Made by a program: the position numbers and the translations under genes. DNA of 64,000 bases from Candidatus Chisholmbacteria bacterium RIFCSPHIGHO2_01_FULL_52_32. Its GTDB lineage: Bacteria > Patescibacteriota > Microgenomatia > UBA1400 > Chisholmbacteraceae. Below, piece after piece: positions 5,185 to 64,000 of the stretch. Within the stretch, counting starts at the first letter, position 1. The number at the start of each line of letters is the position of its first letter. A model generated the notes under the pieces. That model had not been told where the DNA came from. It saw nothing but the letters and a program-made list of their open reading frames with translations, and did not search any database. The stretch covers positions 82,100 to 146,099 of the forward strand of contig MHCJ01000003.1 in the NCBI GenBank assembly GCA_001816585.1, given 5' to 3'.

Positions 5185-5267
5185 CAATGACTAGGTCATG
5201 AAACATTTGAGACTCTCAGCAGTCTCATGCCAGCTGATTTCCATTGCATTCGCTATCGAGCTCCCAA

Positions 5268-18007: not shown

Positions 18008-18099
18008 AGCAGTTTTAGCAGAGGTTTGCTTGACCTATTTGTTGAGATTTTTACGCACCCAAGCAGGTGATTTCTTATCTTACTTATCCAAGCATGGCA

Positions 18100-18510: not shown

Positions 18511-18675
18511 ATGGCAGAGGAGGAGAAAAAGGACACCGGTAAGACGACCACAGTTCTGGTCCAGGAAGAGGAAAAGAAGAAGGGCTTTCCCATGCGACTT
18601 GCGCTCATCTACCTACTTATTTTGGCGACCGGGTTTTTTTTGGGGATTTTGTTTGCTTCGCTTCTTCGAAGTTAA
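18511..18675 (+). CDS. Possible 54-aa single-TM protein (not in ORF track, <60 aa)
   Basis: ATG at 18511 ('MAEEEKKDTGKTT…GFPMRLALIYLLILATGFFLGILFASLLRS*'), preceded by TTGCCT-18-TAGAAT. Weak call. Confidence 0.3.
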   Translation: MAEEEKKDTGKTTTVLVQEEEKKKGFPMRLALIYLLILATGFFLGILFASLLRS

Positions 18676-24005: not shown

Positions 24006-24102
24006 TGTCTGTTTCGGGGAAACTCCGATATCGTTGAGAGGTTCGACCTTCTGACACTCGAGTTGAAAATCCGAGAGAATAGTGCTATAGTACGTTTCAT
24101 GA

Positions 24103-30238: not shown

Positions 30239-31360
30239 TTAGAGGGAGAGGATGTTTTGGATGTTACTGAAGGAAGTGGGATTTTTCCCTTCGAGTTGTA
30301 CCTGATCGAGGATAAGAATAGGGTTTAACCTGCCTGCCGGTGGGGCAGGGGTATAGGGTTTAGGGTATAGGTGGGCAGTTAAGATTTTCATCCGTTTCTC
30401 TTCACTTTTAACTTTTAACTTTTGACTTTTAACTTTTACTTTCGTCCAGATACCTGGCCAGGGAGAGAAGGCGCGAACAGCACGCTCGAGAAAATCGGCT
30501 CGGCCGACCGAAATTTTCTTGGCTGCTGAAGGGTTATCTTGAATGGCTTTTCTCTTCTGTTGTGTCTGCCATGCCTTTGGCCTGGCCGTCGCAGCCGGCG
30601 AAAATTTGTCGACCTCGCTCTGTTGAAAAACTTCTTTGAGCCGTTGATTGAGCCTATTTGGGGCGAAAAGTTTCCCTGCCATTGCCTGTTGGATGAGTTT
30701 CCAGGGAACAAAGCCATCATCGCGGGTGAGGCGGGGAGCGTAGGTGGCTCTCAGATGATCTTGTGCGCGGGGAGTGATCTTTCCTTCCACCCACGAGCGG
30801 AGGATGGTGATGAGGACTTCGCCGCCTTTAGAAAAAAGACGTTGGTAGAGCGTTTTTGAGGTGTCGTCCGCGCGGATTTCTTCCTTGAACTGAGCGATAA
30901 TCGGACCGTGGTCAAACTGCTCATCCATCCTGATGATCGTCATTCCGGTTTCTTTTTCGCCGGTGAGAATGGCGAACTCTCCGGGTGAGGCGCCGCGGAA
31001 TTTTGGCAGAAGAGAGGGGTGAAGGTTGAGACACCCATGCTTGGGGTAGTCGAGGAGTTCCTTTGGAATGAGTTGGGCGTAGTCAGCGACGATCGCAACA
31101 TCCAGCTGTGGAAGGTTTAATACCTTTATGGGAGTCTCCCTTAAAGGTGCGGGGGTTATGACGGGAATGAAATGTTCTTTAGCAAAAGTGTGGGGCGGGG
31201 TTTTGGTTAATATCTGTCTTCTGCCTACCGGACGAGGCGGAGCGGTTATTACGAGTTTTACTGGAAACCTCGCGTCTAATAAGGCTTTGAGGACGGTTAC
31301 CGAGTTTGGGGAAGAGCCAAAGAAGGCTAAAGAAAACGGTCGGTTCATCGAATTGATCAT
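30239..31360 (-). CDS. fmt: Methionyl-tRNA formyltransferase Fmt (with C-terminal repeat-derived insertion)
   Basis: N-terminal formyltransferase domain (…LNLHPSLLPKFRGASP…). A ~30-aa low-complexity insert 'KVKVKSQKLKVKSEEK…HLYPKPYTP' is encoded by the AAAGTTAAAAGT and GGGTTTAGGG repeat units at 30349-30445. Confidence 0.8.
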   Translation of the reverse strand: MINSMNRPFSLAFFGSSPNSVTVLKALLDARFPVKLVITAPPRPVGRRQILTKTPPHTFAKEHFIPVITPAPLRETPIKVLNLPQLDVAIVADYAQLIPKELLDYPKHGCLNLHPSLLPKFRGASPGEFAILTGEKETGMTIIRMDEQFDHGPIIAQFKEEIRADDTSKTLYQRLFSKGGEVLITILRSWVEGKITPRAQDHLRATYAPRLTRDDGFVPWKLIQQAMAGKLFAPNRLNQRLKEVFQQSEVDKFSPAATARPKAWQTQQKRKAIQDNPSAAKKISVGRADFLERAVRAFSPWPGIWTKVKVKSQKLKVKSEEKRMKILTAHLYPKPYTPAPPAGRLNPILILDQVQLEGKNPTSFSNIQNILSL

Positions 31361-31374
31361 ATACCCTTGTTGGA

Positions 31375-31998
31375 TCAGAAGAGGGGCGCATATGCGAGGG
31401 ATACTTCTTCAAGCTTTTCACCTTTTGCCTCGTAGATCGGGAGATTGTCTTTTACCGATCGGTCGGTAAAAAGGATGCCGTTTAAGTGGTCGAGTTCGTG
31501 TTGAAAAACCCTGGATGGGAAGTCAATGAGCGTTTCGCTTCGCTTGCGCAGGGCATAGGGTTTAGGGATTAGGGTAGAGTATTTGACGGTTACCCACCGG
31601 TGGCGATAGACGGGACCCCAGAAGCCCGGAATTGAGAGACATCCTTCGAGGGTGGGTTTTTCTTTGTTCGGACCTAAGGTCAGTTCAGGTGAGGCCTCGA
31701 TGATCTCGGGGTTGATGATGATTTGGAGGATCGGTTTTTCCTTGTCTTCCGGATCGCCCGATGGGGGGAGGAGGATGGCAAAGACGCGGAGGGTTTTACC
31801 GATTTGGACCGCGGAGAGACCGACTCCGCGGGGACTGCGGCTTTGCAGGGTATCTCCGAGATCCTTGATCAGGCGTTGGGTTTTTCTGTCGATTGACTGG
31901 ATCGTCTTTGAAGTTTGCCGGAGGATCGGGTTGGGAACGGTGAGGATTTTTTTCATTCCTCCATTATACCAGCTAGACTTTCGGGTATAGATTGACAT
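31375..31998 (-). CDS. def: Peptide deformylase Def (with repeat-derived insertion)
   Basis: 'GVGLSAVQIG' and 'HELDHLNG' motifs. The in-frame insert 'YSTLIPKPYAL' is encoded by the tagggtttagggattaggg repeat at 31553-31585. Confidence 0.8.
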   Translation of the reverse strand: MSIYTRKSSWYNGGMKKILTVPNPILRQTSKTIQSIDRKTQRLIKDLGDTLQSRSPRGVGLSAVQIGKTLRVFAILLPPSGDPEDKEKPILQIIINPEIIEASPELTLGPNKEKPTLEGCLSIPGFWGPVYRHRWVTVKYSTLIPKPYALRKRSETLIDFPSRVFQHELDHLNGILFTDRSVKDNLPIYEAKGEKLEEVSLAYAPLF

Positions 31999-48658: not shown

Positions 48659-48693
48659 AAGAGGTCGGACCTCTGCACAAAGGTCCGACCTCT
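48659..48693. promoter_or_regulatory. Tandem palindromic boxes AAGAGGTCGGACCTCT-n6-AGGTCCGACCTCT ~125 nt upstream of nrdJ (candidate operator)
   Basis: Palindromes read directly. A near-identical tandem pair is at 56238-56274. Confidence 0.35.
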
Positions 48694-48820
48694 CTGCCCA
48701 AGTGAGAAAGAAAGGTGATCGATTTTTTACGATTTCTTCTTTCCCTTGAGGATGATCGGATTTGATGTCGATATTGATGGTTGCGCCGGGTTTGAGCGGT
48801 CTGTTATCGTGGTTTATGAA

Positions 48821-51034
48821 ATGGCTTTATGGCAGGTTCGTAAACGAAGTGGGGAGCCTGAGGATTTCGATCCGGCAAAGATCACCCGGTCAATCGTCAT
48901 GGCGCAGTCCAATGTAGGGGTTACCGATGCCGAAACCGCCAAGCGGATCGCGAAGATGGCGGTTTCCGATCTTTCCGATCGGCTGGCGTCGGAGCGGGTG
49001 ATCGGGACGGATGAGATCGGGGATACGGTTGAGCGGATCCTGATTGACGAATCCCTCTATGTGATCGCCCGCGCCTATATCATTGCCCGCGAACGCAGGC
49101 GGCAGGAGCGGAAGGCGGAGAAGCAGTTAGGCGTGGTGGATGATGTCGGCCTGCCATACAATTCGGTCGTTGTCATTCGCAACAAGTACCTTCGCAAAGA
49201 CGACAACGGGCACCCGGTTGAGACGCCAAAACAGATGTTTCTGAGGGTGGCGCAGGCGCTGGCTCGGGCGGAATCTTCGAGAAAAGGGTTGTATGAAAAG
49301 CGGTTTTTCGATGTCATGGTTTCTCTGCGGTTTTTGCCCGGCGGGCGGACGCTTGCCAACGCGGGGACGGTCAATAATCAACTCGCCAATTGCTTTGTTC
49401 TGCCCATGCCGGATTCGGTTGAAGGGTTTTTTGAGGTGGTCAAGGCAAGCTCTATCCTCAAGAAGAACGGCGGCGCGGTCGGGTTTAACTTCGGAAAGAT
49501 CAGGCCAAAAGGGGACATTGTCGCCAGGACGAGCGGGAGGGCGTGCGGGCCGGTGGCTCTCATGAAGATCGTGAATGATGCTTCGGATATTTTGCTTCAG
49601 GCAGGCGGTCGACGGAGCGGGAATATGGTCATTTTGCCGGTATCCCATCCTGACATTTTGGAGTTTATCACCTGTAAGGAGGATGAAACGCTTCTTCCCC
49701 ACATCAACTATTCCCTGGGTGTGACGGGGAAGTTCATGGAGGCGGCGGCGAAGGATCGCAGTTGGAACCTTATCAATCCGAGGAATGGCGAGGTTGTCAA
49801 CACGGTTTCGGCGCGGTCAATCCTTGAGCTTGCCTGTTCCATGGCATGGAGAAATGGGGATCCCGGCTTGGTTTTCTTGGATCGGATCAATGTGGATAAC
49901 CCAACGCCCCAAGTGGGCGTGCTTGAGGCGGTGAACCTCTGCGGGGAGCAACCACTCCTTCCATGGGAGGCGTGCAATTTGGGCAGTATCAATTTGGCAG
50001 CGCACCTTATGGGGAACGGGAAACGGACCGTCGATTGGGAGCGTCTTTCCGAGTCGGTTCGTCTCGGTATCCGCATGCTTGATGATGTCGTGACAGTGTG
50101 CGGCTATCCTCTGCGGAAGATCCAAGAGGTGGTTCGCAGCAACCGGAAGATCGGGCTTGGGGTGATGGGATGGGCGGATGTTTTGGTACGCTTGGGGATA
50201 CCCTACACCAGCGAAGAGGCATTGCGGCTGGCCCACCGGACGATGAAATTTATTCGGGAAACTGCGGAAGATGAGAGCCAGAGGCTGGGGAGAGAGAAAG
50301 GGAGTTTTCCCAATTTCAGAGGTTCGGTTTGGGAGAAACGGGGTTTCAAGCATTTTCGGAATGCGACCTTGCTTACCATCGCTCCGACGGGGTCGATCAG
50401 CATGGCGGCCGGCGTCTCGTACGGGATTGAGCCTTTGTTTGCCCTGGCTTTTTATAAAGAGGCGATGGGAGGGGTACAGCTTCCTGAAGTTAACAGCGAC
50501 CTCATGGAGGCGCTCCGGAATGCCGGTGTCGAGGAGAACGGGCTCTTGGATGAGGTGGCGCAAACCGGAACGATCCAGCACCTTACTAAGATTCCCGAGA
50601 GGATCCGCAGAGTGTTTGTGACCGCCCACGATCTCTCGATCCGCGACCATGTCTTTATGCAGGCTGCGTTTCAGAAGTATACCGACAACGCGGTTTCGAA
50701 AACGATCAATCTCCCGCATACCGCCCGGGTTGAGGATGTGGAAGCTGCCTTCGTGCTAGCCTGGAAGACCGGGTGCAAAGGGATCACGGTTTACAGAGAT
50801 GCGAGCCGAAAGGTGCAGGTCCTGCACGTCGGGAAATATTCAATAGACACAAGACACAAGACACAAGACACAAGACAGGGGAAAAAAGATGTCCCCGTGC
50901 AGGCTAAGAAGCTGCAAGCGAGTAAGCTACTAAGCTCCTCTTCCCTCGAGTGTCCGCAGTGCGGGGCGATGATGCAGATGGCGGAGGGGTGTGCTACTTG
51001 CCCTTCTTGCGCGTTTTCGGTCTGCAGTCTATAG
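48821..51034 (+). CDS. nrdJ: Class II (adenosylcobalamin-dependent) ribonucleotide reductase NrdJ with N-terminal ATP-cone and C-terminal Zn-ribbon
   Basis: ATP-cone '…QVRKRSGEPEDFDPAKITRSI…'. Class II core '…NLCGEQPLLPWEACNLGSINL…'. C-terminus 'CPQCG…CATCPSC'. Start trimmed to Met at 48821. Carries an in-frame (ACACAAG)x5 repeat at about 50846-50877. Confidence 0.85.
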   Translation: MALWQVRKRSGEPEDFDPAKITRSIVMAQSNVGVTDAETAKRIAKMAVSDLSDRLASERVIGTDEIGDTVERILIDESLYVIARAYIIARERRRQERKAEKQLGVVDDVGLPYNSVVVIRNKYLRKDDNGHPVETPKQMFLRVAQALARAESSRKGLYEKRFFDVMVSLRFLPGGRTLANAGTVNNQLANCFVLPMPDSVEGFFEVVKASSILKKNGGAVGFNFGKIRPKGDIVARTSGRACGPVALMKIVNDASDILLQAGGRRSGNMVILPVSHPDILEFITCKEDETLLPHINYSLGVTGKFMEAAAKDRSWNLINPRNGEVVNTVSARSILELACSMAWRNGDPGLVFLDRINVDNPTPQVGVLEAVNLCGEQPLLPWEACNLGSINLAAHLMGNGKRTVDWERLSESVRLGIRMLDDVVTVCGYPLRKIQEVVRSNRKIGLGVMGWADVLVRLGIPYTSEEALRLAHRTMKFIRETAEDESQRLGREKGSFPNFRGSVWEKRGFKHFRNATLLTIAPTGSISMAAGVSYGIEPLFALAFYKEAMGGVQLPEVNSDLMEALRNAGVEENGLLDEVAQTGTIQHLTKIPERIRRVFVTAHDLSIRDHVFMQAAFQKYTDNAVSKTINLPHTARVEDVEAAFVLAWKTGCKGITVYRDASRKVQVLHVGKYSIDTRHKTQDTRQGKKDVPVQAKKLQASKLLSSSSLECPQCGAMMQMAEGCATCPSCAFSVCSL
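50980..51017. repeat. Direct repeat A (last codons of nrdJ); 35/38 identical to 52643-52680
   Basis: A reads gcggaggggtgtgctacttgcccttcttgcgcgttttc. B reads gcggagaggtgtgctacttgcccctcctgcgcgttttc. In the nrdJ frame both continue to encode …CATCPSCAFS(V/A)CSL and end in a stop codon. Confidence 0.7.
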
Positions 51035-53761: not shown

Positions 53762-54160
53762 ATGGATATAGAGAAGAAGCGCGTCTATGTGGTTCCGAAT
53801 GGGGATGCTCATGAGGCTCTTCATTACGGGGCAGACACCCAGATTTTCGTTGCCGGTCCGGACGGCATTCGGGGACCATACGAGACTGCAACACATGTAG
53901 TGGAGCGAGGGTTCCGGATAGTTGGAACTCTTGACCGCTTTCGGCCGCTTCCGGAGATTGCCCAAGAATTGGGTGCGGAGGATTTTGCCAGCCTTCATTC
54001 TCAGCTGAAGGCTGTGGTAAGTGCGATTCAGGGTCGGATGGAAAATGCCGATTTCTACTTGAATGAGTGTGGGGCGACAGCTGAACAAAGAGAGCGAGTA
54101 TTTACAATGGCAGAGCAATTACGTCAGGATGTGAGGGGTGAAACGTATGACAGAAGGTAG
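53762..54160 (+). CDS. Hypothetical protein
   Basis: 132 aa. AGGAGG 7 nt upstream. It overlaps the next ORF by 23 nt. Confidence 0.45.
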   Translation: MDIEKKRVYVVPNGDAHEALHYGADTQIFVAGPDGIRGPYETATHVVERGFRIVGTLDRFRPLPEIAQELGAEDFASLHSQLKAVVSAIQGRMENADFYLNECGATAEQRERVFTMAEQLRQDVRGETYDRR

Positions 54161-54479
54161 CGGAGGTGGCGCACCAGACGGGATGTTTGATCCTTTCTCA
54201 CAGAAAGGACGAGAGCGGGAGCCGCTGGGTGCCGAGAGTCCCGGTGAGGCGGATGAGATGAAGCAGAAGGGCCCGGCAATTTCCGGGCGGGTGGATAGTA
54301 TTGAGGTTATTCCGCCAATCTTTGGTGATACCGGAGGAGAATCAGATATTGATACGGGTTCAAGTTTACCGGCGCCTGTGATAGATGTTAAGGCTTCTCT
54401 CAGTATCCAGGACCGAATTGATCTTGCAGCGAAGGCAATGGAGACCGAAGCCTGGATTAGAATGCGGGACGGCGGATAA
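54138..54479 (+). CDS. Hypothetical protein
   Basis: 113-aa ORF, translationally coupled to the previous one. Confidence 0.4.
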   Translation: MKRMTEGSGGGAPDGMFDPFSQKGREREPLGAESPGEADEMKQKGPAISGRVDSIEVIPPIFGDTGGESDIDTGSSLPAPVIDVKASLSIQDRIDLAAKAMETEAWIRMRDGG

Positions 54480-54599
54480 AGTTTAACGGAGTTTGCCTGA
54501 AGTAAAAAAGTTAGTCCGGCGTCTTCGCTATTATTCCTTTCCCCATAATCAATACTCGTTACTCATTATTTCTCGCTCGGGGCTTGTATTTGTGAAGTC

Positions 54600-56192
54600 T
54601 TGTGTGCTACGTTCTTTCAGATGAGTCTTCGGGTGCGCGGGTGGCCGATCTATTATAAAGATATCCTTCGGGTGAAAGACCCTGATCATCATGTGGGGGT
54701 TTGTTCGTTATGGACGGAGCGGCAGGTGGTTGAGAAGCTCGTCTCGGGCACGCGATACAACCTCATCGGCAACCTCTACAGTGCGCAAGGGATCAATGCG
54801 ATGATCCGAAACATCTTTGCTAACCCTTCGATCCGTACGGTTGTGTTATGGGGAGCGGAGATGAGTTTGTCGGGGCATTCGCTGTTGATGCTGATGAAGG
54901 AGGGAGTGGATGAGGCAAGGCGGATCAAAAACGGGCGAGGGGAGATTGAGGAGGAGATTCCGCTTCCTGTCGTTGACCAGTTCCGAAAGGTGGTTGAGGT
55001 GGTTGATCTGCGGGGAAGGGATCGGGATTTCCTCGTTGCCACACTTCGGCAGTTGGATAAAGTAAAGAAGCCGCCATTTGCACGAAAGCCAAAACTCTTT
55101 CCTAAATCGGAACCGAAGACTACGATGTTTCCGAGCGAGAGTGTTGGGTTTCGGGTATCCGGAACAAAGGTCGCCAAGACGTGGCTTAAGCTTCTCAATG
55201 AGATCTACAAATATGGAAAACCCAAGCATACGCGTTACAGCAGGGATAACTCGATTCGTGAGATTTTGAATCTGACGGCGGTTGTCACCGATGAGGACCC
55301 CGAGAAGATTTATTTTCCCTCTTACCTTCCGTTTTCCGAGACCGAACTTATCGCGTACTATGCTGAACTGTTGACGGACCGGCAGATTCCGGGAGTCGCC
55401 TACAACTATGGGAGAAGACTGCGCAGGGAGCTGGGGGTGGATCAGATTGCCAAGATGAAGGAGCTTGTTAAAAAGCGGCCGGCATCCAAAAAAATGGCAG
55501 CCTTCACCGCGGACGTGAAGAAGGATTGGGGAGCGGTGCATAAGGGTGACACGCCGTGTTTGACACAAATATTAGGAAGCATCTTCGAAAAACGGTTTTA
55601 CATGACTGCCCATTTTCGGAGCCAAGACATGGTGCACGGTTGGCCGCGGAATGCCTTTGCCCTTCGGAAACTGCAAAAAGAAATTGCGGATGCTACCGGC
55701 TATAGAATGGGACCGCTGACGGTTATTACCCACAGTGCGCACATCTACGGAGATGACTTTTTGCTGGTTGAAAATCTTCTCATGGATCATTACGAGAAAG
55801 AATTGGGCTTCTCGCCGGCCGTTCATTTTACCTTTGATCCGCGCGGCAATGTGGTGATTGAAATTGTGAGTATGAAAGAAGCGCTGCAATTTCATGAATA
55901 CTCCAAACGTTATGAAAAGGGGGCAGTTCCTTTTGCCGTTTCACAGACGCTGAAGCGGCTGCCCAAGCGGGGGAGAAATTCCGGCAAGCTCATCCGGGCG
56001 ACGCTGTTTGCTCCGGACGGCGGCGCACCTCTCAAAATATTTGAAGGAAGAACAGCACAGGAAGTGGCATATCAAATTGCCGATTGGGGATATCTTTCGG
56101 ATCCCGCGCACGCGATGTATGTCGGCCAGGAACTGCAGCGGGCGGAAGAGGCGATTGTTCGTGGCGGGAGGTATCACCAGGATCCGGCGTGA
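54600..56192 (+). CDS. Thymidylate-synthase-family (ThyA/dUMP- or dCMP-hydroxymethylase-like) enzyme with ~150-aa N-terminal and ~110-aa C-terminal extensions
   Basis: Central ~270 aa align by eye to ThyA: 'TRYSRDNS' ~ DRTGTGT; 'YNYGRRLR' ~ YG.QWR; 'GDTPCLTQI' ~ LAPCH (catalytic Cys); 'HFRSQDMVHGWPRNAFAL' ~ YQRSCDVFLGLPFNIASY (Arg-Ser…Asp and Asn retained); 'HSAHIYGDD' ~ THLYSNH. The flanking extensions have no recognisable motif. The start may be Met at 54621. Confidence 0.7.
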   Translation: MCATFFQMSLRVRGWPIYYKDILRVKDPDHHVGVCSLWTERQVVEKLVSGTRYNLIGNLYSAQGINAMIRNIFANPSIRTVVLWGAEMSLSGHSLLMLMKEGVDEARRIKNGRGEIEEEIPLPVVDQFRKVVEVVDLRGRDRDFLVATLRQLDKVKKPPFARKPKLFPKSEPKTTMFPSESVGFRVSGTKVAKTWLKLLNEIYKYGKPKHTRYSRDNSIREILNLTAVVTDEDPEKIYFPSYLPFSETELIAYYAELLTDRQIPGVAYNYGRRLRRELGVDQIAKMKELVKKRPASKKMAAFTADVKKDWGAVHKGDTPCLTQILGSIFEKRFYMTAHFRSQDMVHGWPRNAFALRKLQKEIADATGYRMGPLTVITHSAHIYGDDFLLVENLLMDHYEKELGFSPAVHFTFDPRGNVVIEIVSMKEALQFHEYSKRYEKGAVPFAVSQTLKRLPKRGRNSGKLIRATLFAPDGGAPLKIFEGRTAQEVAYQIADWGYLSDPAHAMYVGQELQRAEEAIVRGGRYHQDPA

Positions 56193-56237
56193 AGGAGAAG
56201 TAAGGAGCAGGGAAGTTGTCGAAAGGTCGACGGCGTC

Positions 56238-56274
56238 GAGAGGTCGGACCTCTAAACACAGAGGCCCAACCTCT
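56238..56274. promoter_or_regulatory. Tandem palindromic boxes GAGAGGTCGGACCTCT-n6-AGAGGCCCAACCTCT (second site of the same motif as 48659-48693)
   Basis: Read directly. It lies between the TS-like gene and the downstream kinase/HAD/tmk genes. Confidence 0.35.
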
Positions 56275-56503
56275 ATAGAAAAATTGTTCTCAGAGATGCG
56301 GCCGCACCCGCGAGAACAATAGTTGTGAGAGGGTGATTCATTTGATAGGTGGTTATTGGAGCTTTTTTCCCCGAAACTGAATCTCATTCTTCCGATCCTG
56401 AAACTTCCTAGACCCTAGACCCTGCATCCTAGCGCGGTTTCGGGTCATTTTCTTCTTTACAAGCTTTCCTTTATCGTGCTACCGTGCTTGCGGTATTACC
56501 GAT

Positions 56504-56776
56504 TTGTTTTATGTGAAAATGAGCGGACCAGAAGGTAAGCGAACATTCCCTCCATATGCTGTTCAAGGACCGGACGGGTTAATATTCCCCGAAGCAATGA
56601 GTCAGACTCCTCCGAGGCCGTTCTCAGAAGTTGTGAATGAGCGGGCGAAGATGCTCGATCTCAAGCCCGGTGAGTGGTTATTGGGAGCTGATGGCCCGGT
56701 CGGCGTGGTTGATCCTGAAGGCAATGTTGTGCTCATTCAGGATCTGCCGGGTTTCCGACCGGAAAACCTGTCTTGA
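56504..56776 (+). CDS. Small hypothetical protein
   Basis: 90-aa ORF. Confidence 0.4.
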   Translation: MFYVKMSGPEGKRTFPPYAVQGPDGLIFPEAMSQTPPRPFSEVVNERAKMLDLKPGEWLLGADGPVGVVDPEGNVVLIQDLPGFRPENLS

Positions 56777-56827
56777 TGAAAGATGCCTCTGATTTGTGTT
56801 GGCTTAAAGTAACGGAGGACATAATCT

Positions 56828-58111
56828 GTGAGTGGTGTTGTTGAGCGCAGAAGCCTAACTGAGACTGGCGCGAGATTGGTTGAGGAGTTGATTCCGGATG
56901 AGGGATTGTCGCTTGATATTCGGGAAGAGATTCATACCGTTTCAACCGGGTTTCGCATCCTCAAGACCGAACCTTCCTCGAGTTTCTCGGCTTTTCTTGG
57001 GAAGAACTACCCCAAAGTTTCCGATGCTTTTTCCGGTGAGATAGTCCTGAAGTCCTGCGGAAAAACGGAGCATTCGTTTTTCCATAATGACGGACCGATC
57101 GGAGAGATGACGCTTGCAATGGAGACGGATGTCGATCTTCGGCAATCAAGCGTTGGCATGCCTTCAAGCTTTGGGGTTGCCTATATGAGTGCTTCGCGCG
57201 GGCCACGCAGACAGGCTGTCCTTACCTCAAGTCGGGTACGGGGAAGCGAACCCTGTGTCGTTATGCCACAGTTCCCTGTGGGCTCATCACTGTCTGAGAT
57301 GTATACCTCTTTCACTCCGTCTTCAACGGCGGAACAGGAAATTGCGCGCACTCTACTTAAACGGCTATTTTCCATGAAACGTCCGGTTTCCCAGGATGTG
57401 GCTGAGACGTACGGTTCTGTCCCGGCAACCCTTGGGCTTATCCGCGATGAACGGATGCAGAGATTTGAGTTTGAGGATCCCCTGTTTTCCGAACAGGCAA
57501 GGGTTGTTAACCGGGCTTTGGAGAGGGCGCTTCTTGGGCAAGAAATGGGAGTGTTTCTTGCCGATGAGATCCGTGCCGGCCGGGTGGGGGAGCAACATGG
57601 GGACGCGCGGGCGTTTGATAACCTCCACTTCGTGCGGAGGAAAGACGGAGGTATCGAGGCATTCATACGCGATCCGGTGCGCTTGAGCCGGAAGACCAGC
57701 GGGGGGCCCAAGCTCATGCGGGAGTGGTTCGTTACTCATGATGATTTGCAGGCCGGGATGCTGATCGGCGGTCCTTTTGTCCAAGAGCGATTTCACGGAT
57801 TCGTACGGAATCTCATTACCGCGTATATGGATTCTGACCCTCAGAACCGGGCAATTCTTACCAACCCTCTGCGTTCTCAGCTGTTTGGGCTCGGAATCGC
57901 ATACGGGGTAAGCATCGACCTTGCGGTTGCCAACTACCATCGCAGAGATCTTGAACATCGCCTTGATACACTCCGGCATTCTGATTCCGGCCGGGGAACT
58001 GAGGAAATAGACGCCCAATTCAATGAGCGCGTACGACTGATGGATCGGTATTGGGATAGCCTCGCGTTTTTGGCCGAAACCGATTTTGTCGGGTGGAAGG
58101 AGGCCTTATGA
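56828..58111 (+). CDS. Kinase-fold protein (APH/ePK-like catalytic-loop motif 'HGDARAFDNLHF…IRDP')
   Basis: 427 aa. 'HGD…N' followed by 'I(R)DP' resembles the HGDxxxxN…IDxE catalytic core of aminoglycoside/choline-kinase-like phosphotransferases. Overlaps the next gene by 19 nt. Confidence 0.45.
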   Translation: MSGVVERRSLTETGARLVEELIPDEGLSLDIREEIHTVSTGFRILKTEPSSSFSAFLGKNYPKVSDAFSGEIVLKSCGKTEHSFFHNDGPIGEMTLAMETDVDLRQSSVGMPSSFGVAYMSASRGPRRQAVLTSSRVRGSEPCVVMPQFPVGSSLSEMYTSFTPSSTAEQEIARTLLKRLFSMKRPVSQDVAETYGSVPATLGLIRDERMQRFEFEDPLFSEQARVVNRALERALLGQEMGVFLADEIRAGRVGEQHGDARAFDNLHFVRRKDGGIEAFIRDPVRLSRKTSGGPKLMREWFVTHDDLQAGMLIGGPFVQERFHGFVRNLITAYMDSDPQNRAILTNPLRSQLFGLGIAYGVSIDLAVANYHRRDLEHRLDTLRHSDSGRGTEEIDAQFNERVRLMDRYWDSLAFLAETDFVGWKEAL

Positions 58112-59346
58112 ATGTTGAGGCAAGACCGATCGGTACGGAGCGCCACATTCCGGCCCGTATTGAGCAGCTTGGAGGTTTACGACGGATCGGGCCGATTGAG
58201 GTTTCCCGGGATCTTACCTATGAGCCGGAAGGTGCGGCGATCGGTTTGCATGAGACTTTGTCCGACGACCCGACTTCCACCGGAAGATTGGTTCGGTTTC
58301 TCGCAAACGGAGAGGATTTCGGGGTGAAGACATGGCTCGACCAGGGACATGGGTTCCTGCAATTTTCGATGCCATGGCAACGCCTGTGGTCGCTGGCGGC
58401 GGAGTGCCAGAAAGCCCAGGAAGGACAACGCGATTGGAGTGAGGGCAGCCGAACCCATCTCGGATTGGTCGGTGTGCGCCGGATGGGTGAGGGTCGAGTT
58501 GAAGTTTCGGACGCCTCAACCATTGACGGGGGAGCGGTTGATCCGGGGCTTCTCATGCGTTGGCTTCCCAGCGAGACGAACCTGCCGACGATACTTGTGA
58601 ACGATCCGGAGCGTTTCGTACGTCTTGTGCCGAGGGCGATTATGGCAATTGCCGATAATGAGGTTGTGCTTTCCCCGGAGGAAGGCTTGCGGCTTGGGGG
58701 GGCGGAGGGGATTCGCTTTTGGATTGACAAGGGGAATCTCGGTGCGCTTCGGACCGATTTTGATCCGGCGGCGCGCAGGTTTGCGTCGGAATTTTGGGAG
58801 TCGTTTTCGGGATTTATTGATCGGTTTGCTCCTGTCCTTAATCAACGTGCCTTGGCCGGCAATATCGTTTGGGGGAACGGAGATACCAAGCCGTACAACA
58901 TGTTTGAGGTGGACGGGCGTGTCGGGATCATCGATCCGATCACGCTTCTTTTAAAGACCGGCAGTAGAGGGGAGTACACCCTTGCGCCCTGGCCGTTTCG
59001 GGATCGGATTTCCGAGCTGGCGTATTTTACCTGCTACTTTCGGGCGGGTGAGCGCTTGGTGGGGTCGGCCGACCGCTTCGTTTACGATCGAGCCATTGCG
59101 ACGTACGAGCAGCTCCACGGAGAAGCGGTTTCGGAGGGTCCCGGCCGGGCCCTGCTTTCATTCCATGAAGCGGCTCTTTCGCAGGTCGAGTTTGAGGTCA
59201 ACCTTCGTTTGTCCCGTGATCCTGGTTGCCGGGATAGCGCGATGCGGCAGGAGTTGGCTTGGGCGCTTGAGGAGGAAGCCCTCGAGGCGATCGGGGATGC
59301 CCATGTTCAAGCTTCAGACAGCGGACTTGCAAACGTGGCCTTGTAA
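58093..59346 (+). CDS. Kinase-fold protein (APH/ChoK-like; 'NIVWGNGDTKPYNMFEVDGRVGIIDP')
   Basis: 417 aa. Degenerate 'GNGD…N…IIDP' catalytic-loop/DxG-like pattern. Translationally coupled to the previous gene. Confidence 0.5.
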   Translation: MEGGLMNVEARPIGTERHIPARIEQLGGLRRIGPIEVSRDLTYEPEGAAIGLHETLSDDPTSTGRLVRFLANGEDFGVKTWLDQGHGFLQFSMPWQRLWSLAAECQKAQEGQRDWSEGSRTHLGLVGVRRMGEGRVEVSDASTIDGGAVDPGLLMRWLPSETNLPTILVNDPERFVRLVPRAIMAIADNEVVLSPEEGLRLGGAEGIRFWIDKGNLGALRTDFDPAARRFASEFWESFSGFIDRFAPVLNQRALAGNIVWGNGDTKPYNMFEVDGRVGIIDPITLLLKTGSRGEYTLAPWPFRDRISELAYFTCYFRAGERLVGSADRFVYDRAIATYEQLHGEAVSEGPGRALLSFHEAALSQVEFEVNLRLSRDPGCRDSAMRQELAWALEEEALEAIGDAHVQASDSGLANVAL

Positions 59347-59379
59347 CCCAACAATAATCTTTGGTATTCTGAATGTGGA

Positions 59380-60294
59380 ATGGCAAAACGCGTCAAAGTC
59401 ATCATGGATTTTGATGGAACCTTGACCGATGAGGGACGGCAGGCTCTGGAGCTTGCCACCATTGCCAAAGGAATGCTCGCCGATATCTTAGGAGTTCCGC
59501 TGCCTCGGATCGAAGCAAGTTACAACCGGATTCGCCAGCGTATTCTTCGTACCCCTCAGCATTTCCATTGGGAAGTCAATGGTCTCCCGGCGACCTATGC
59601 CTATGAAGGGGCGTATCTTCTTAACACTACGATCGTACAAGAGATCATCCGCTCCAAACCTGCCTATCTTCACAAAATCCGTAAACTCTATCCTACTGAC
59701 GGGCTTGACCCGATGACCAAATGTACGAACCACCTCTTTCACGCCGGGACTTTTCAGGTCCATCCCTATTTCTTGGATGGTGTACGGACACTTTTGGTTT
59801 CCCTGATTGAACATCCCTTAATTGACCCTGTTATCATGACAAACTCGGAAACGCGGAAGATTACGAAAAACCTTCGGAAGCTTCGGATCGGGCAGCGCGG
59901 AGCCCGGCACAAGTTTCCCCACGAGATTGATGTTCTGGGAGATACCCGGCAGTACCATATGGATCCGGCGTGGGAACAGGCGTTCGACTCTGGAAAAAAT
60001 GGGCTGATTCAAGTTCTGCCGATCAATGAGCATTTTACGGTCGATCTGCGGCGGCCGGTCTATCATGCGGCTTTACAGAGGATTATGGATGAGGGTTATG
60101 ATCAGGTTGTGGTGGTTGCCGACGGTTTTTCTCTTGCCGGTGCGTTGCCGCTTGCGATGGGTCTTCGCTTTATCCTTAAGAAAACTGACTTCACCCCTGC
60201 GTGGACTGAGGAATACGTTTCGACACACCCGAATGGGTCGGTGGTTTCGGGTATACCTGAGCTTGGGAGCCTGCTTCGATCTTTGGTAGAATAG
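59380..60294 (+). CDS. HAD-superfamily hydrolase (phosphatase)
   Basis: Motif I 'IMDFDGTLTD'. 304 aa with a large cap insertion. Confidence 0.7.
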   Translation: MAKRVKVIMDFDGTLTDEGRQALELATIAKGMLADILGVPLPRIEASYNRIRQRILRTPQHFHWEVNGLPATYAYEGAYLLNTTIVQEIIRSKPAYLHKIRKLYPTDGLDPMTKCTNHLFHAGTFQVHPYFLDGVRTLLVSLIEHPLIDPVIMTNSETRKITKNLRKLRIGQRGARHKFPHEIDVLGDTRQYHMDPAWEQAFDSGKNGLIQVLPINEHFTVDLRRPVYHAALQRIMDEGYDQVVVVADGFSLAGALPLAMGLRFILKKTDFTPAWTEEYVSTHPNGSVVSGIPELGSLLRSLVE

Positions 60295-60298
60295 CGGC

Positions 60299-61009
60299 AT
60301 GGACGAACAAGCGGCGGGAACTCTCCTTGAGCAAGCTTCTCATACGGAGTTTTCACCTTCATGGATTTCAGAGATTCGGGCGTTAGGCTGGGACTTGGAT
60401 GGGACGCTTTACCGGGACGTCCCGGAAATACGTGAGCGGATGGAAGGGCAAGTTCTCACGACCATCTCGGAGCGTCTTGGTCAGGATCTTGCTTGGGTGA
60501 AGAAGGAATATCGACAGCGGCTCAGGAAGATCGGGAGCAATACCAAAGTGATCGGGAGCTTTGGTCTTGATGGGCCTGAGGTTGTTGACCTGTCTTTTGA
60601 TCAGATTCCCTTCGAGCAATTGCTTCGACCTGACCCGAAGCTTAAAAGAATGTTTGCGTCACTGCCAAACCTAAGGCATGTGCTGATCACCCATAACCGT
60701 ATTGACCAAGCCCGAAGAAAACTTGCCTGTTTGGGTTTGCCGGAATCGGTTTTCACCCTCGTCGTGCCGGTGTATGATTGGGAGATGAGCAAGCAAGATC
60801 CTTCCCTTTATCGAAAGGTTCTCGAGCTCTTAACAATTCGCCCTCATCAGATGCTCTACTTAGGGGATCGGGAAGCTGTTGATATCCTCCCTGCGAGGGA
60901 AGCGGGACTGCGAACGGGAATGGTGTGGGGGGATTCGAGCGCGGCTGACATCTCGCTGCCGACGGTGTACGATGTGGGGGAATTGTTTCAAGTTACAAGT
61001 GAAAAGTGA
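60299..61009 (+). CDS. HAD-superfamily hydrolase (pyrimidine-5'-nucleotidase-like)
   Basis: Motif I 'GWDLDGTLY'. Motif III/IV '…LYLGDREAVDILPAREAGLRTGMV'. Confidence 0.7.
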   Translation: MDEQAAGTLLEQASHTEFSPSWISEIRALGWDLDGTLYRDVPEIRERMEGQVLTTISERLGQDLAWVKKEYRQRLRKIGSNTKVIGSFGLDGPEVVDLSFDQIPFEQLLRPDPKLKRMFASLPNLRHVLITHNRIDQARRKLACLGLPESVFTLVVPVYDWEMSKQDPSLYRKVLELLTIRPHQMLYLGDREAVDILPAREAGLRTGMVWGDSSAADISLPTVYDVGELFQVTSEK

Positions 61010-61105
61010 AAAATGAAAAATTACAATTCAAAATTAAAAGTTTTCTCCCATAATTTTTAATTTTAAACTGCAACTTTGAACTTTGAATTTTAAACTTTAA
61101 ATTTT
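61000..61105. repeat. AT-rich palindromic repeat block (AAAGTT/AACTTT family) plus CCCTAA unit
   Basis: 'caagttacaagtgaaaagtgaaaaatgaaaaattacaattcaaaattaaaag…ttaattttaaactgcaactttgaactttgaattttaaactttaaatttttta accctaag'. Confidence 0.45.
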
Positions 61106-61152
61106 TTAACCCTAAGAACCTAATACGCTAAATAGCTAAAAGTTAACAAGCT

Positions 61153-61782
61153 ATGAAAAAGGGTGTTCTCATCAGTTTTGAAGGGGGAGAGGGGTCGGGG
61201 AAGACCGTTCAGATCAAGCGGTTGCGGGACCGACTGACGAAAGCGGGTAAGGATGTTGTCGTGGTTCGGGAGCCCGGAGGGACTGTGATTTCCGAACAGA
61301 TCCGTGAGGTACTGCTTTCTCCGAAGAATATCGGGATGGCATACACGACGGAGGTTCTCCTCTTCCAAGCGGCTCGGGCGCAGATTTTTCGGGAGATTGT
61401 CCTTCCTTCGCTTGCAGCCGGCAAGGTGGTCTTGATGGATCGGTCGCGGGACAGCTCGACCGTGTACCAGGGTATGGTGCGGGGATTTGGGGTGGATCTT
61501 ATTGAGGGATTGAATGAGCTGTCGACAAAGAAAACGTACCCTGACCTGACGTTCCTTTTGGATGTTCCGGTCGAGACCGGACTTGAGAGACGAAATCATA
61601 CTTCCAAGATGGATCGGTTAGACATGGAGGCGCGGGAGTTCCATGAGCAGGTCCGCAGAGGCTACCTCACACTTGCACGCAAGAATGACCACCATCGTTG
61701 GGTGATAATTAATAGCCAGCAAAGCATTGATGCTATTTCCGAGCGTATTCGGGACGAAGTTCGCGCGCGAAAGATTGTGTGA
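61153..61782 (+). CDS. tmk: Thymidylate kinase
   Basis: P-loop 'ISFEGGEGSGKTVQ', DRS-like 'LMDRSRDSSTVYQG', and lid region. Confidence 0.85.
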   Translation: MKKGVLISFEGGEGSGKTVQIKRLRDRLTKAGKDVVVVREPGGTVISEQIREVLLSPKNIGMAYTTEVLLFQAARAQIFREIVLPSLAAGKVVLMDRSRDSSTVYQGMVRGFGVDLIEGLNELSTKKTYPDLTFLLDVPVETGLERRNHTSKMDRLDMEAREFHEQVRRGYLTLARKNDHHRWVIINSQQSIDAISERIRDEVRARKIV

Positions 61783-61930
61783 GTACCGAATCACTTCATC
61801 ACGCCTTGACAGCAGTTGTACTTCTGCGGTAAAATTCGCCGCACGAAACGGTCATTTCCTGCCGTTTCTTTTCAATTGACCTTAACAAACATTACATTGT
61901 AAAACTGGCTGCCTTTGCTTTATAATTCCT

Positions 61931-64000
61931 ATGGCTTCAGCAGAGTCAAGCTTGCCAAGACGAGTTGAGACAGAATCTTCGGTTATTCACGGGAAGCAGG
62001 GGGAGGACTTTGAGGGTCGTCGTGGAATGAATCCTGAACGTTCGGAGCCAGATCCAATTCCGGTTGTACGGATCATCCCCCTGACATTCAAATCCGTACA
62101 AAAGCTGCGCGATGAACTCGATTCCGGGCAGAAGATTGATGACATCGAGCTCACCCGGGTCGTCATGAGCGTAAAAAGTAGTAGTAGCACTACCAGTTAT
62201 GGAATGACGATGCCGCTCGGCGGGAAGATGGAGCCGGGAGAGACTTTCCTTGCGGCTGCGCGTCGGAGGATCCGGGGTGAATCGATGCTCTATCCGATGG
62301 GCGGGCACTGGTGGGAGGATCGCCCGCTGTTTCGGCCGATTGATGGCAGCTACACCTACTCCATTCTCGGACAGGAAAGAACTACCGAGAGTCCTCCAGA
62401 GCCTCGGTTTGTAACCATCCTGCCTTATCCGGTGCTGCCCCCCGAATATACGCGGCTTCACCTCAAACCCAATCCGAAAAAAGATAAGATCGCTTCCTTT
62501 GAGTCATTTACTCCAAGCGAATTGAACGTTCTCATCCGGCATGGGGAGGTTGATCGGCTCCGCGACGAAACAGGTCCCTTAGGCGAAGCGCTGACAACCT
62601 TTGACCTCGCCGGCCACTTCAGTGTTGCGGCAAAATATGATATCGAGATAGAACCCGCGGAAGCGCAAAAGAAGAACCGCGTACTTGAGAATCTCCTTGA
62701 GCGGGTTGATGATTTTGAATGGCAGACACGGTCGGCGGTGCTGTCCGAAATTCAGAGTGAGCGGGTACTTCGAAGTGAAGCTTCCGTTCCTTCCCTCACG
62801 AATTGTCGACCGGACGAGATTATCCGTGCCTTTGAACGCGTCCACATTTTTTGGCTCCTTAGGGACGAGAAATCCCGTGAAGCCTCGGGTGTCCGACGTC
62901 CTCCTCCCGGATTGGATCTCCTCAAGTTTGCCTGGTTTATGTCCGGAGAGGGGATTGAACCAAAAGATATGGTATCCCTCTTATTTGAAAGCCCCACTGA
63001 TCATATCCGAAAGACCGTGCGGTCTGTCGTCCTGTCTCTTCGTCGAGCGGTACTTACTGTTGAACAGAAGCGCTTGGAGGCCGAGCATGGTCCAGATCAA
63101 GCCAATAGTTTGATGAAAGCGGTGAAGCTCGATACCATGCTTGAGCTTGTCCGAAGCCGATTTGGGAAGATGGCCCCCCTTGGTCGGTTTGAATATCTGC
63201 GTGAACTCGATGCGATCTTTGTAAGGGAATTTGCCAAACATCTCGGTACTACGCCTGAGGCGATTTGGGAAGTCAAACCGAAGATTGATCGCTTCTTCTA
63301 CTCCATGGTTGATCAGAGTTTGCAGGCGAACCCGAAGTTTGCCCGGATGCACCAACCCAGCAAGCCGTTCAATGAGATTATGAACTCTGAAGTGGCGCGG
63401 TTGATCCTCATCTCCCTTGGCGTGAACCCCCTGTCTCCCAGTGATCGGATCACCGATGATCGACTGCGGCGGCAATTCACCTACGAAGCGACCAGACACT
63501 TGGGTTTTATCGTCCGAGGAGTTGAGTCCCATAAACGGTACATGGAACTTCTCCGGAATGGGAATGCTCCCATTGAGGCGATCATGGATAGCCTGTTTAC
63601 CCCGCCGGATCATGAGGAAGTGAGACATGCGGGAGACCGGACGTATACCGTGCTTCATAGACGAACGCGGTTCCGGGTTGACGGGGAAGAGCAGCACGTT
63701 TTCGTTGATGAGAAGCCGCCGAAGGATTTCGAGTCATTCCTCCGGAAGTCTCTGCTTGAACCGCTTGATGAGATCTACGATGTGTTCTCGCGGAACATCG
63801 TCCTTGTCGCGAATGAAGACATCGAACATGGGGAAGAGACGTCTCGAACCGCCGAGTCGTTTGCCGACCTCCTTAAGAAACGGATACGGGTCGCAAATAC
63901 TATCAAGAATTCCATCAAGCGCCACTTCGTCGATATCTGCACTGATTCTGGCTGGAGGATTGAATTTATTGGTGAGAAGGATTCGTTTGCCCAACTGGGT
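61931..64000 (+). CDS. Large hypothetical protein, 3'-truncated by window end (≥690 aa); degenerate Nudix-like box near N-terminus
   Basis: An uninterrupted reading frame from ATG 61931 to the last base of the window was checked codon by codon. It is absent from the ORF track only because no stop occurs. 'GGKMEPGETFLAAARRRIRGES' partially fits Gx5Ex7REUxEExGU. A TATAAT sits 5 nt upstream of the ATG. Confidence 0.6.
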   Translation, partial: MASAESSLPRRVETESSVIHGKQGEDFEGRRGMNPERSEPDPIPVVRIIPLTFKSVQKLRDELDSGQKIDDIELTRVVMSVKSSSSTTSYGMTMPLGGKMEPGETFLAAARRRIRGESMLYPMGGHWWEDRPLFRPIDGSYTYSILGQERTTESPPEPRFVTILPYPVLPPEYTRLHLKPNPKKDKIASFESFTPSELNVLIRHGEVDRLRDETGPLGEALTTFDLAGHFSVAAKYDIEIEPAEAQKKNRVLENLLERVDDFEWQTRSAVLSEIQSERVLRSEASVPSLTNCRPDEIIRAFERVHIFWLLRDEKSREASGVRRPPPGLDLLKFAWFMSGEGIEPKDMVSLLFESPTDHIRKTVRSVVLSLRRAVLTVEQKRLEAEHGPDQANSLMKAVKLDTMLELVRSRFGKMAPLGRFEYLRELDAIFVREFAKHLGTTPEAIWEVKPKIDRFFYSMVDQSLQANPKFARMHQPSKPFNEIMNSEVARLILISLGVNPLSPSDRITDDRLRRQFTYEATRHLGFIVRGVESHKRYMELLRNGNAPIEAIMDSLFTPPDHEEVRHAGDRTYTVLHRRTRFRVDGEEQHVFVDEKPPKDFESFLRKSLLEPLDEIYDVFSRNIVLVANEDIEHGEETSRTAESFADLLKKRIRVANTIKNSIKRHFVDICTDSGWRIEFIGEKDSFAQLG

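Follow-up and report, generated by a model that had tools for sequence, protein, structure and literature searches.

A probable dTTP-supply locus with a three-domain thymidylate synthase and a strain-variable kinase cassette in a Chisholmbacteria-like bacterium

Introduction

Gene clusters in which an enzyme of the thymidylate synthase (TS) fold lies beside kinases and phosphatases are known from phages. The SPO1-type phages combine a hydroxymethylase for deoxyuridine monophosphate (dUMP) with a dedicated kinase and a thymidine monophosphate (dTMP) phosphatase, and in the deoxycytidine monophosphate (dCMP) hydroxymethylase of the T4 gp42 type, cytosine specificity is conferred by an Asp at the position of N177 in the thymidylate synthase ThyA. 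An outwardly similar set of genes occupies positions 53762–64000 of the 64,000-nt stretch of Candidatus Chisholmbacteria contig MHCJ01000003.1 analysed here (hereafter the window), and a first-pass annotation had read it as a cluster for a non-canonical pyrimidine nucleotide or for DNA modification. We have examined the ThyA-family gene of this region, the two kinase-like genes E and F that follow it and a tandem palindrome that recurs upstream of the nearby nrdJ gene, and consider the region to be, more likely than not, a housekeeping locus for supply of deoxythymidine triphosphate (dTTP), in which a kinase cassette that varies between strains is inserted next to a three-domain ThyA typical of the lineage. 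Nothing at the locus indicates thymine replacement or DNA modification.

Comparison with the described systems brings out both the likeness and the distance. The phage hydroxymethylase pathways (T4 gp42, PDB 1B49 and 6L18; SPO1 type) share with the window the juxtaposition of a TS-fold enzyme with kinases and phosphatases, whereas the window enzyme has Asn in place of Asp, is chromosomal and lineage-wide, and is accompanied by kinases of the aminoglycoside phosphotransferase (APH) fold and not of the nucleoside monophosphate (NMP) kinase fold, kinases that have no relatives in viral contigs. With canonical ThyA (PF00303; B. subtilis 1BKO, E. coli) it shares the Cys of TPC, the RSxD motif, the uracil-specificity Asn and the His and Tyr of xHxY, yet only about 115–140 residues align (E ~1e-10), Lys-Lys stands for Arg-Arg, the core is not C-terminal and two extra domains are present. 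The methanogen-type TS of Methanocaldococcus-like archaea (TIGR03283) has the same compact core and catalytic motifs but forms a protein of its own, about 200 aa long, whereas the core in the window sits between an MtrA-like N-terminal domain and a DUF4346 C-terminal domain; the biochemistry of archaeal ThyA, including its cofactor preference, is little known (comparative study, PMC9012536). The N-terminal domain matches the Rossmann-like domain of MtrA (PF04208; PDB 5LAA, 5L8X, 8Q3V) but, unlike MtrA, lacks a membrane anchor and the cobalt-site residues, is fused to TS and occurs in a non-methanogen. The proteins E and F resemble the APH/choline-kinase/methylthioribose-kinase family (Rv3168, 3ATT; LicA, 4R77; MtnK, 2OLC; NahK, 4OCJ; CcrZ, 7S3L), but unlike these match no Pfam model; they are 7–15% identical to solved members and form new, very small families. 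Finally, the palindromes recall NrdR-box regulation, in which tandem palindromes lie upstream of a ribonucleotide reductase gene with a second copy at another deoxynucleoside triphosphate (dNTP) operon, although the window box is species-specific and differs in sequence and spacing.

Results and Discussion

The thymidylate synthase

The ThyA-family gene is an open reading frame (ORF) of 530 codons on the plus strand (54600–56192) that contains the motifs first quoted for it, namely DTPC320L, R340-S-Q-D343 and PRN351AF. Translation probably starts at M8 (54621), giving a protein of 523 aa, as in the homologues and in the gene call of L014, a contig of the same species. Three Pfam domains exceed their gathering scores, MtrA (residues 13–139 in the numbering of the 530-codon frame), Thymidylat_synt (270–395; PF00303, 41 bits against a cut-off of 24.3) and PterinBD-DUF4346 (413–528), and we delimit the MtrA-like domain at residues 13–150 (54636–55049), the ThyA core at 188–400 (55161–55799) and the PterinBD-DUF4346 domain at 406–530 (55815–56189). 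In the alignment to B. subtilis ThyA, C320 corresponds to the nucleophile, R340-S341-x-D343 to the phosphate- and pyrimidine-binding segment and N351 to the uracil-specificity Asn, and H381 and Y383 are likewise matched. These residues, equivalent to E. coli C146, R166, S167, D169, N177, H207 and Y209, are invariant in 22 homologues from the candidate phyla radiation (CPR), and the comparison with ThyA that the first-pass annotation had proposed accordingly finds the counterparts of N177 and D169 kept (N351 and D343). The best NCBIfam model for the core is TIGR03283 (4.6e-33, residues 188–388 on model positions 5–199 of 201). Among PDB entries the profile of the family matches B. subtilis ThyA (1.7e-10) better than T4 dCMP hydroxymethylase (3e-6) or a CMP hydroxymethylase (5.7e-6), and the PHROG matches of the protein are all annotated as thymidylate synthase. 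A dCMP hydroxymethylase of the T4 gp42 type was considered and rejected, N351 being nearly invariant as Asn, not Asp, across the family. Homology shows the 523-aa protein to be the normal ThyA-type thymidylate synthase of its lineage, predicted to methylate dUMP.

The distribution of the enzyme points the same way. A word-indexed search retrieved at least 500 proteins, and the best 120 of these, at 60–100% identity over at least 92% of the query, carry all three Pfam domains without exception (120/120). Their hosts include Pacebacteria, Woesebacteria, Beckwithbacteria, Cerribacteria and other Patescibacteria; several are already annotated as 'thymidylate synthase' or 'DUF4346 domain-containing protein'. 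When 1.84 billion representatives at 50% identity were searched exhaustively with a profile, 428 clusters emerged at E<=1e-30, and nearly all of the top 150 are 450–530 aa long, with a match that extends from the N-domain to the C-domain; in 38 sampled clusters DUF4346 was found in 38, TS in 37 and MtrA in 30. Among the named members are one from a bacterium of candidate division KSB1 and one from a nanoarchaeote (Nanoarchaeota). With hundreds of three-domain homologues, the architecture is that of a large catalogued family and not a peculiarity of this locus, which is the very circumstance, an extended TS common in related genomes, that had been named as telling against an unusual pathway. 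The three-domain TS is thus already known to the databases, and its domains are recognised by Pfam. In the same genome pairs TS is about 66% identical, NrdJ about 56% and TopA about 54%, and this better conservation is as expected for an essential housekeeping enzyme. Identities of the N-domain, core and C-domain are 64, 72 and 60% within the CPR and 33, 34 and 23% in the wider family; both added domains are shown to be integral parts of a TS subfamily, the N-domain nearly as conserved as the core and the C-domain somewhat less so. Longer variants also occur, at 733 aa (P0173/P0281, from Nanoarchaeota, a DPANN archaeon) and 862 aa (P0203); the match in P0203 begins at residue 267, implying that further domains are fused to it.

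The genes around the TS would supply further steps of an ordinary pathway. Upstream lies nrdJ (48746–51034, plus strand), encoding a class II, adenosylcobalamin-dependent ribonucleotide reductase with an N-terminal ATP-cone (Pfam), whose assignment in the first-pass annotation is borne out by TIGR02504 NrdJ_Z (609 bits, cut-off 400); downstream lies tmk (61153–61782, plus strand), where the dTMP kinase call is also secure (TIGR00041, 168 bits, cut-off 83). By homology, NrdJ makes deoxyribonucleotides and Tmk phosphorylates dTMP; between them, the TS would methylate dUMP through Cys320 with a reduced pterin as one-carbon (C1) donor, most likely methylene-tetrahydrofolate produced by a serine hydroxymethyltransferase (SHMT) encoded about 5 kb downstream of the locus. 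The SHMT gene is found downstream in three related loci, L014, L011 and L002. Methionyl-tRNA formyltransferase (Fmt) and peptide deformylase genes lie side by side on the minus strand of the window (30239–31998); this pair shows 10-formyl-tetrahydrofolate to be in use in the organism, a point of relevance to the C1 donor of the TS, and Fmt and the nearby SHMT together show folate-type C1 chemistry to be operating. The pyrimidine-deoxynucleotide theme that had been noticed in nrdJ, the ThyA-family enzyme, the haloacid dehalogenase (HAD) proteins and tmk stands, and relatives extend it with SHMT, dcd, dCMP deaminase, a fusion of nucleoside deoxyribosyltransferase to Tmk and a phosphoribosyltransferase (PRTase).

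Several features of the enzyme nevertheless count against so plain an assignment. The TIGR03283 score of 114.4 bits is below the equivalog cut-off of 174.55, so that the core, distant from characterised ThyA, belongs to a related subfamily and is not the equivalog itself. The inter-subunit Arg-Arg pair (E. coli R126'/R127') is replaced in the CPR clade by Lys297-Lys298, with the positive charge kept; the consensus of the wider three-domain family at this position is Arg-Arg. The folate-contacting Trp residues of E. coli ThyA are not evident. Sequence alone cannot tell a methylase from a dUMP hydroxymethylase, and we know of no reliable sequence discriminator between thymidylate methylases and the SPO1-type enzyme, which is set apart by hydration in place of hydride transfer at the exocyclic methylene. 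Lastly, scans for the ThyX motif RHR-x7-8-S and for ThyA motifs returned only the known gene, and Pfam scans of about 40 window ORFs revealed no second TS, nor any dihydrofolate reductase (DHFR); these searches, like that for Tdk, reach across the 64-kb window of a genome of about 956 kb, some 890 kb of which lies outside it.

The divergence of the core below the equivalog cut-off, together with the lack of a discriminating residue, is also what could be said for the proposal that a non-canonical pyrimidine nucleotide is the product of the cluster, the TS homologue producing, for instance, 5-hydroxymethyl-dUMP, which would end in modified genomic DNA. A TS homologue with kinases, HADs and a Nudix-like protein does formally resemble the phage pathways for 5-hydroxymethyldeoxyuridine, and E, F, G and J are uncharacterised. 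Yet this TS recurs in genomes of the CPR, DPANN and KSB1 by the hundred, and the majority of them have neither E nor F; it is the sole TS seen in the window; and a standard Tmk with SHMT nearby fits ordinary dTMP synthesis. Nor do the supposed auxiliary enzymes suit the scheme, in which dedicated kinases would phosphorylate 5-hydroxymethyl-dUMP and phosphatases or the Nudix enzyme would remove the canonical nucleotide: APH-fold kinases act on hydroxyl groups and not on NMPs, two of the three catalytic Glu residues are missing from the Nudix box, and for E and F neither relatives in viral contigs nor PHROG matches were found. E and F, moreover, turn over between strains (see below), which is hard to reconcile with genome-wide base replacement, a trait that could hardly be optional from one strain to the next. 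With a common TS architecture, Asn351 kept, ThyA models preferred over hydroxymethylases, and strain-variable E and F that have no relatives in viral contigs, the non-canonical part of the first-pass interpretation is not upheld; we regard modified DNA as highly improbable, and the division of labour among kinases, phosphatases and Nudix enzyme that it would entail as just as improbable.

The fused MtrA-like and DUF4346 domains

The extensions flanking the TS core had been described as novel and of unknown fold. Both in fact belong to Pfam families, MtrA (PF04208) at the N-terminus and PterinBD-DUF4346 (PF14251) at the C-terminus. The N-domain scores 44.7 bits with PF04208 (cut-off 25), and its family profile matches PDB 5LAA at 2.3e-19 over about 150 residues of the soluble Rossmann-like MtrA domain. 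In MtrA the cobalamin site comprises the cobalt ligand His84, its partner Glu54 and a GAIP[FY]xEN segment (PMC4915002). In the HMMER alignment His84 falls in a two-residue insertion that is missing from the N-domain, Glu54 falls in a gap and the segment reads GEIE--EE, while a near-conserved His93 of the N-domain is Gln in some members; with the ligand residues missing, His-on corrinoid binding by this domain was rejected. The DUF4346 domain weakly matches archaeal dihydropteroate synthase-like proteins (TIGR00284) at their C-terminus, and the extreme C-terminus of the enzyme, Y-x-QDPA, is invariant in the CPR set. In the literature searched no paper mentioning DUF4346 turned up, nor one on a fusion of MtrA with thymidylate synthase, and a search oriented to Patescibacteria gave only unrelated papers on the cytochrome called MtrA.

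MtrA occurs with MtrH, a pterin-C1 enzyme (PMC4915002), and it is this company of both domain types with pterin-dependent C1 enzymes elsewhere that leads us to infer a part in handling the pterin cofactor. Tentatively, by analogy, the fused domains most likely bind or retain a scavenged pterin cofactor, or else build the oligomer, and Y-x-QDPA may perhaps play the active-site-closing role of the canonical ThyA C-terminus. An argument from association of this kind is a weak point of the reading of the locus as a whole, and any such role is put forward with little confidence.

A bolder possibility is that the three-domain TS is mechanistically non-canonical, its fused domains serving methyl or electron transfer by a corrinoid or another cofactor, or re-reduction or retention of the pterin. 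That the accessory domains are about as conserved as the core and present in essentially all members would suit this idea, as would the association of both domain types with pterin-C1 enzymes (MtrA with MtrH, PMC4915002; DUF4346 in TIGR00284, a weak match), the cobalamin dependence that the organism already has through NrdJ, the failure to find DHFR among the roughly 40 window ORFs scanned and the silence of the literature searched on DUF4346. On the other side, His84, Glu54 and the GAIP[FY]xEN segment of MtrA are missing, His93 gives way to Gln in some members, the DHFR result covers window ORFs and is not on a genome scale, and the full ThyA catalytic set is kept, so that ordinary chemistry suffices. 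We think a non-canonical mechanism unlikely, if worth keeping in mind, and the same doubtful standing attaches to its corollary that dTMP synthesis in reduced genomes would depend neither on a separate DHFR nor on a pool of free folate.

The kinase cassette

Two genes, E (56828–58111, 427 aa) and F (58108–59346, 412 aa), follow the TS on the plus strand. They had been called translationally coupled kinase-fold proteins. The coupling is real, the TGA of E (58109–58111) overlapping the ATG of F (58108) as ATGA with GGAGG 6 nt upstream, and F probably starts at this ATG; the kinase fold holds directly for F and, for E, indirectly through F. The structure model of F (pLDDT 79, pTM 0.82) has a bilobal protein-kinase-like fold, nearest to aminoglycoside, choline and sugar kinases, which marks F as an APH/choline-kinase-fold small-molecule kinase. 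Its motifs K79, E104, D264-x-K266-x-x-N269 and D281 are invariant in six sequences, as are K75, E99, HGD259...N265 and RD282P in six sequences of E. A model of E from a two-sequence alignment (pLDDT 37) was not used, so that the fold of E follows solely from hhalign, in which its six-sequence profile matched that of F with 95% probability over 281 columns, catalytic motifs in register, as befits a remote paralogue with kinase-like motifs. Searches of PDB sequences were without significant result for E, F and G. Neither Pfam nor NCBIfam matched E or F at E<=0.1, the curated kinase families (PF01636 APH, PF01633 Choline_kinase and similar) included. In the databases they amount to two clusters for E and six for F. 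Relatives of F were not found in viral contigs, and one metagenome scan returned a single locus, already known. The PHROG and PADLOC scans covered E, F, G and J, none of which matched, and H was scanned in PHROGs; Tmk was in neither scan. A known defence system was rejected on this lack of PADLOC matches. A third large protein, Y, found in the cassettes of L011 and L012, was considered as a paralogue of F and rejected (hhalign probability 2.4%, not significant), though local motifs look alike.

The order topA-nrdJ-TS-HAD(H)-(tmk) recurs in 10 related genome loci. In the same-species contig L014, tmk is followed by J (824 aa), three small genes and SHMT. L012 has a dCMP deaminase gene and then TS-...-E-F-Y-G; L018 reads dcd-161-E-like-F-P-loop protein. 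L001 and L002 read TS-...-E2-P-loop protein-G-H and end in a fusion gene at the tmk position (L001:17072–18166; L002:15788–16873), whose product of about 360 aa joins a nucleoside 2-deoxyribosyltransferase to a dTMP-kinase or deoxynucleoside-kinase-like domain of salvage type; L002 continues with a PRTase (17870–18664) ahead of SHMT. In L011 (3815–15400), dcd and not nrdJ-TS follows topA, and the block E-F-Y-G-(CMP/adenylate-kinase-like protein, 176 aa)-HAD-tmk, with SHMT further on, is kept, so that HAD-tmk and dcd have the kinase cassette in their company even when the TS lies elsewhere.

L001 and L012 show how sharply the variation is bounded. Their DNA is 95–98.5% identical across TS and the two next genes (203, 150) and 94% identical across G, and between these blocks (L001:12962–15382; L012:7010–11410; about 56500–59350 in the window) lie 2.4–4.4 kb of unrelated DNA, holding a 106-aa ORF, E1, F and Y in L012 and a 114-aa ORF, E2 and the P-loop protein in L001. 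E1 and E2 are 26.6% identical, and the partner of E may be F, F with Y, or the P-loop protein. Turnover of the cassette in strains that are otherwise nearly identical speaks for E and F as accessory genes that do not carry core dTTP steps, which weighs against including them in the core metabolism of a dTTP-supply locus.

As to what E and F do, they may transfer phosphate to a hydroxyl group on some small molecule, and the most plausible substrate, offered with low confidence and by analogy, would be a (deoxy)nucleoside or (deoxy)ribose obtained by salvage. Two considerations lead to this suggestion, the constant position of the cassette among dcd, TS, HAD and tmk genes and, as a precedent, the APH-fold kinase CcrZ, on which ribose and 2-deoxyribose have a stimulating effect (PMC12369353). 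The neighbourhood is a fragile guide, reflecting shared ancestry within a narrow clade at a variable slot, and this too tells against the reading of the locus as a functional whole. If the substrate is of this kind, the HAD phosphatases G and H might, with similar reserve, be opposing nucleotidases.

The same observations admit a rival that we rank below a cassette serving the dTTP-supply locus, as possible but rather unlikely: the E/F cassette, with Y or the P-loop protein in relatives, would be a horizontally exchanged accessory module unrelated to dTTP synthesis, and E and F could then be antibiotic or xenobiotic phosphotransferases, kinases of surface sugars or choline, or an uncatalogued defence or antagonism module in a recombination-permissive slot. 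The near-identical flanks of L001 and L012 around unrelated contents, with E1 and E2 so dissimilar, favour this, and so do the two and six clusters of E and F set against at least 500 proteins for TS, their fast evolution (27–46% identity, where G stays at 56–65%) and the aminoglycoside, choline and sugar kinases that are nearest to F in structure. The cassette, however, lies beside pyrimidine-dNTP genes (TS, dcd, HAD-tmk) in every locus recovered, even in L011 and L018, which lack TS there; it is packed closely against G-H in the same orientation (gaps of 4–34 bp); and neither PADLOC or PHROG matches nor adjacent mobility genes were found.

The neighbouring genes G, H and J and the small ORFs

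All ten consecutive plus-strand genes described for 53762–64000 are present as ORFs. Of the two HAD phosphatases proposed among them, H (60299–61009, 236 aa) stands as an HAD-IA phosphatase (PF00702, 1.4e-13; 52 bits, cut-off 26.4), whereas G (59380–60294, 304 aa) is a divergent HAD-like protein that has only a weak, sub-threshold Pfam match (E 1.4e-3, 19.5 bits) but does carry a DxDxT motif I (MDFDGT, D10-F-D12-G-T). The nearest models to H, CTE7 and pyrimidine 5'-nucleotidase, are both below cut-off, and in PHROGs it has a weak generic HAD match only. In 8 of the 10 related loci H is found next to TS or close by. G is 56–65% identical across five related loci, and E and G occur together in all five loci that span both positions.

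J (from 61931, plus strand, cut by the window end at 64000) had been described as a protein of more than 690 aa with a degenerate Nudix box. It is 824 aa long in L014, and its N-terminal domain (residues 84–146) does match PF00293, if marginally (22.6 against 21.1 bits); against the Nudix consensus GX5EX7REUXEEXGU the box reads G-KMEPG-E-TFLAAAR-RRIRGESML, with two of the three REUXEE glutamates replaced, and the remainder of the protein has no family matches. A terminator-like hairpin with a T-run follows tmk (61845–61868, plus strand) and promoter-like sites precede J (61806–61835 and 61897–61926), which makes J probably a separate transcription unit.

The small ORFs A (53762–54160, 132 aa) and B (54138–54479, 113 aa), both on the plus strand upstream of TS, are confined to this species, and like D (56519–56776, plus strand, about 85 aa) gave no Pfam or NCBIfam match. 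A small ORF holds the place of D before E in relatives; those of L001, L002 and L012 are homologous to each other, and none of the small ORFs preceding E in relatives gave a BLAST match to D.

The tandem palindromic box

The report of one tandem palindrome both upstream of nrdJ and after the TS gene holds up statistically, with eight strand-matches against 0.5 expected and no shuffle reaching eight. Box 1 (AGAGGTCGGACCTCT-n4-AAAGGTCCGACCTCT; 48660–48693, plus strand) lies about 55–90 bp upstream of the nrdJ start and is a candidate operator; box 2 (AGAGGTCGGACCTCT-n6-AGAGGCCCAACCTCT; 56239–56274, plus strand) lies 47 bp past the TS stop and is directly followed by a 36-nt inverted repeat or hairpin without a T-run (ttgttctc...gagaacaa, 56282–56317). 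The module common to both sites spans about 45 bp (GCGTC-rAGAGGTCGGACCTCT-n5-7-CACArAGGyCCrACCTCT) and consists of two 15-bp palindromes in tandem, with about 20 bp from centre to centre, a geometry that would let a transcription factor bind as two dimers on one face of the helix. It is a reasonable inference that the box is a candidate operator of a dimeric regulator coupling nrdJ with D-E-F-G-H(-tmk). Two facts sit awkwardly with that proposal and with the unity of the locus: box 2 is about 245 bp from the next start codon, that of D, and the box, present in the same-species contigs L014–L016, does not occur in the nearest genomes, L001 and L002. Its absence from these two rules it out as a lineage-wide conserved regulatory element.

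NrdR boxes are AT-rich, 16 bp long and about 31–32 bp apart. Neither the AGAGGTCGGACCTCT sequence nor the spacing of about 20 bp fits such a box, so that an NrdR box was rejected; no NrdR gene was identified in the window. A single imperfect palindrome (AGAGGTTCGACCTTCT-like, two mismatches) was also noted at 24035–24050, about 55 bp upstream of a 581-aa ORF (24103–25848) with no Pfam match; it could be a third member of the regulon, or due to chance.

Genomic setting

The source is a Microgenomates (Candidatus Chisholmbacteria-like) CPR bacterium, and the window is a piece of its cellular chromosome. At 80 and 79% identity, the nearest genomic relatives of the TS come from metagenome-assembled genomes of Candidatus Chisholmbacteria and further Patescibacteria (Microgenomates), and the same species is found on public contigs of up to 956 kb. 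By Pfam, genes beyond the region of interest encode TopA, DprA, PBP2, MreB, a sortase, a GDSL lipase, TruB, an acyltransferase, an AbiEii toxin, Def, a cytidylyltransferase-like protein, an M50 peptidase, Fmt, NadE and an O-antigen-ligase-like protein. A phage or prophage origin of the cluster was rejected on the strength of this housekeeping context, the lack of PHROG matches for E, F, G and J and the lack of viral-contig relatives of F.

GC skew is above zero in every 2-kb bin, its cumulative value climbs monotonically and long ORFs are mostly on the plus strand, which places the whole window within a single replichore, whose direction most of the genes share. An Rfam scan of the whole window found tRNA only, a single tRNA-Trp (5113–5185), and no riboswitch or other known RNA in intergenic regions. 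The tRNA falls inside the span of a long minus-strand ORF (3935–5206), which is thus probably spurious or shorter, and near an AbiEii-type nucleotidyltransferase toxin gene (5563–6225) in a stretch of lower GC content (0.44 at 6–8 kb). A 291-aa ORF at 20948–21823 has a sub-threshold uracil phosphoribosyltransferase-like match (23.3 against 27 bits) and may be a further pyrimidine-salvage gene.

Significance

The answer to the question of base modification is mostly deflationary, the region being most likely a normal dTTP-supply locus of a CPR bacterium. What it adds to the biology of these organisms lies elsewhere. Two new, tiny families of APH-fold kinases occupy a strain-variable slot inside a dNTP operon, and a species-specific tandem operator, if its sequence is rightly read as linking nrdJ with the downstream operon, would point to a further regulator of dNTP supply where no NrdR box was recognised. 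Across CPR, DPANN and KSB1, thymidylate synthesis in a very large uncultivated set relies on the three-domain enzyme, and the role of its MtrA-like and DUF4346 domains bears on how genome-reduced symbionts handle folate and pterin. We give only a slim chance to the combined view that the TS is mechanistically distinct, with or without E and F as the first APH-fold kinases of (deoxy)nucleosides or deoxyribose in dNTP salvage; if it is true, the TS would represent a third way to thymidylate, and fused domains that bind a corrinoid or pterin, and thereby provide or regenerate the C1 donor or reductant inside the enzyme itself, would account for dTMP synthesis by ultra-reduced genomes with a minimal folate apparatus.

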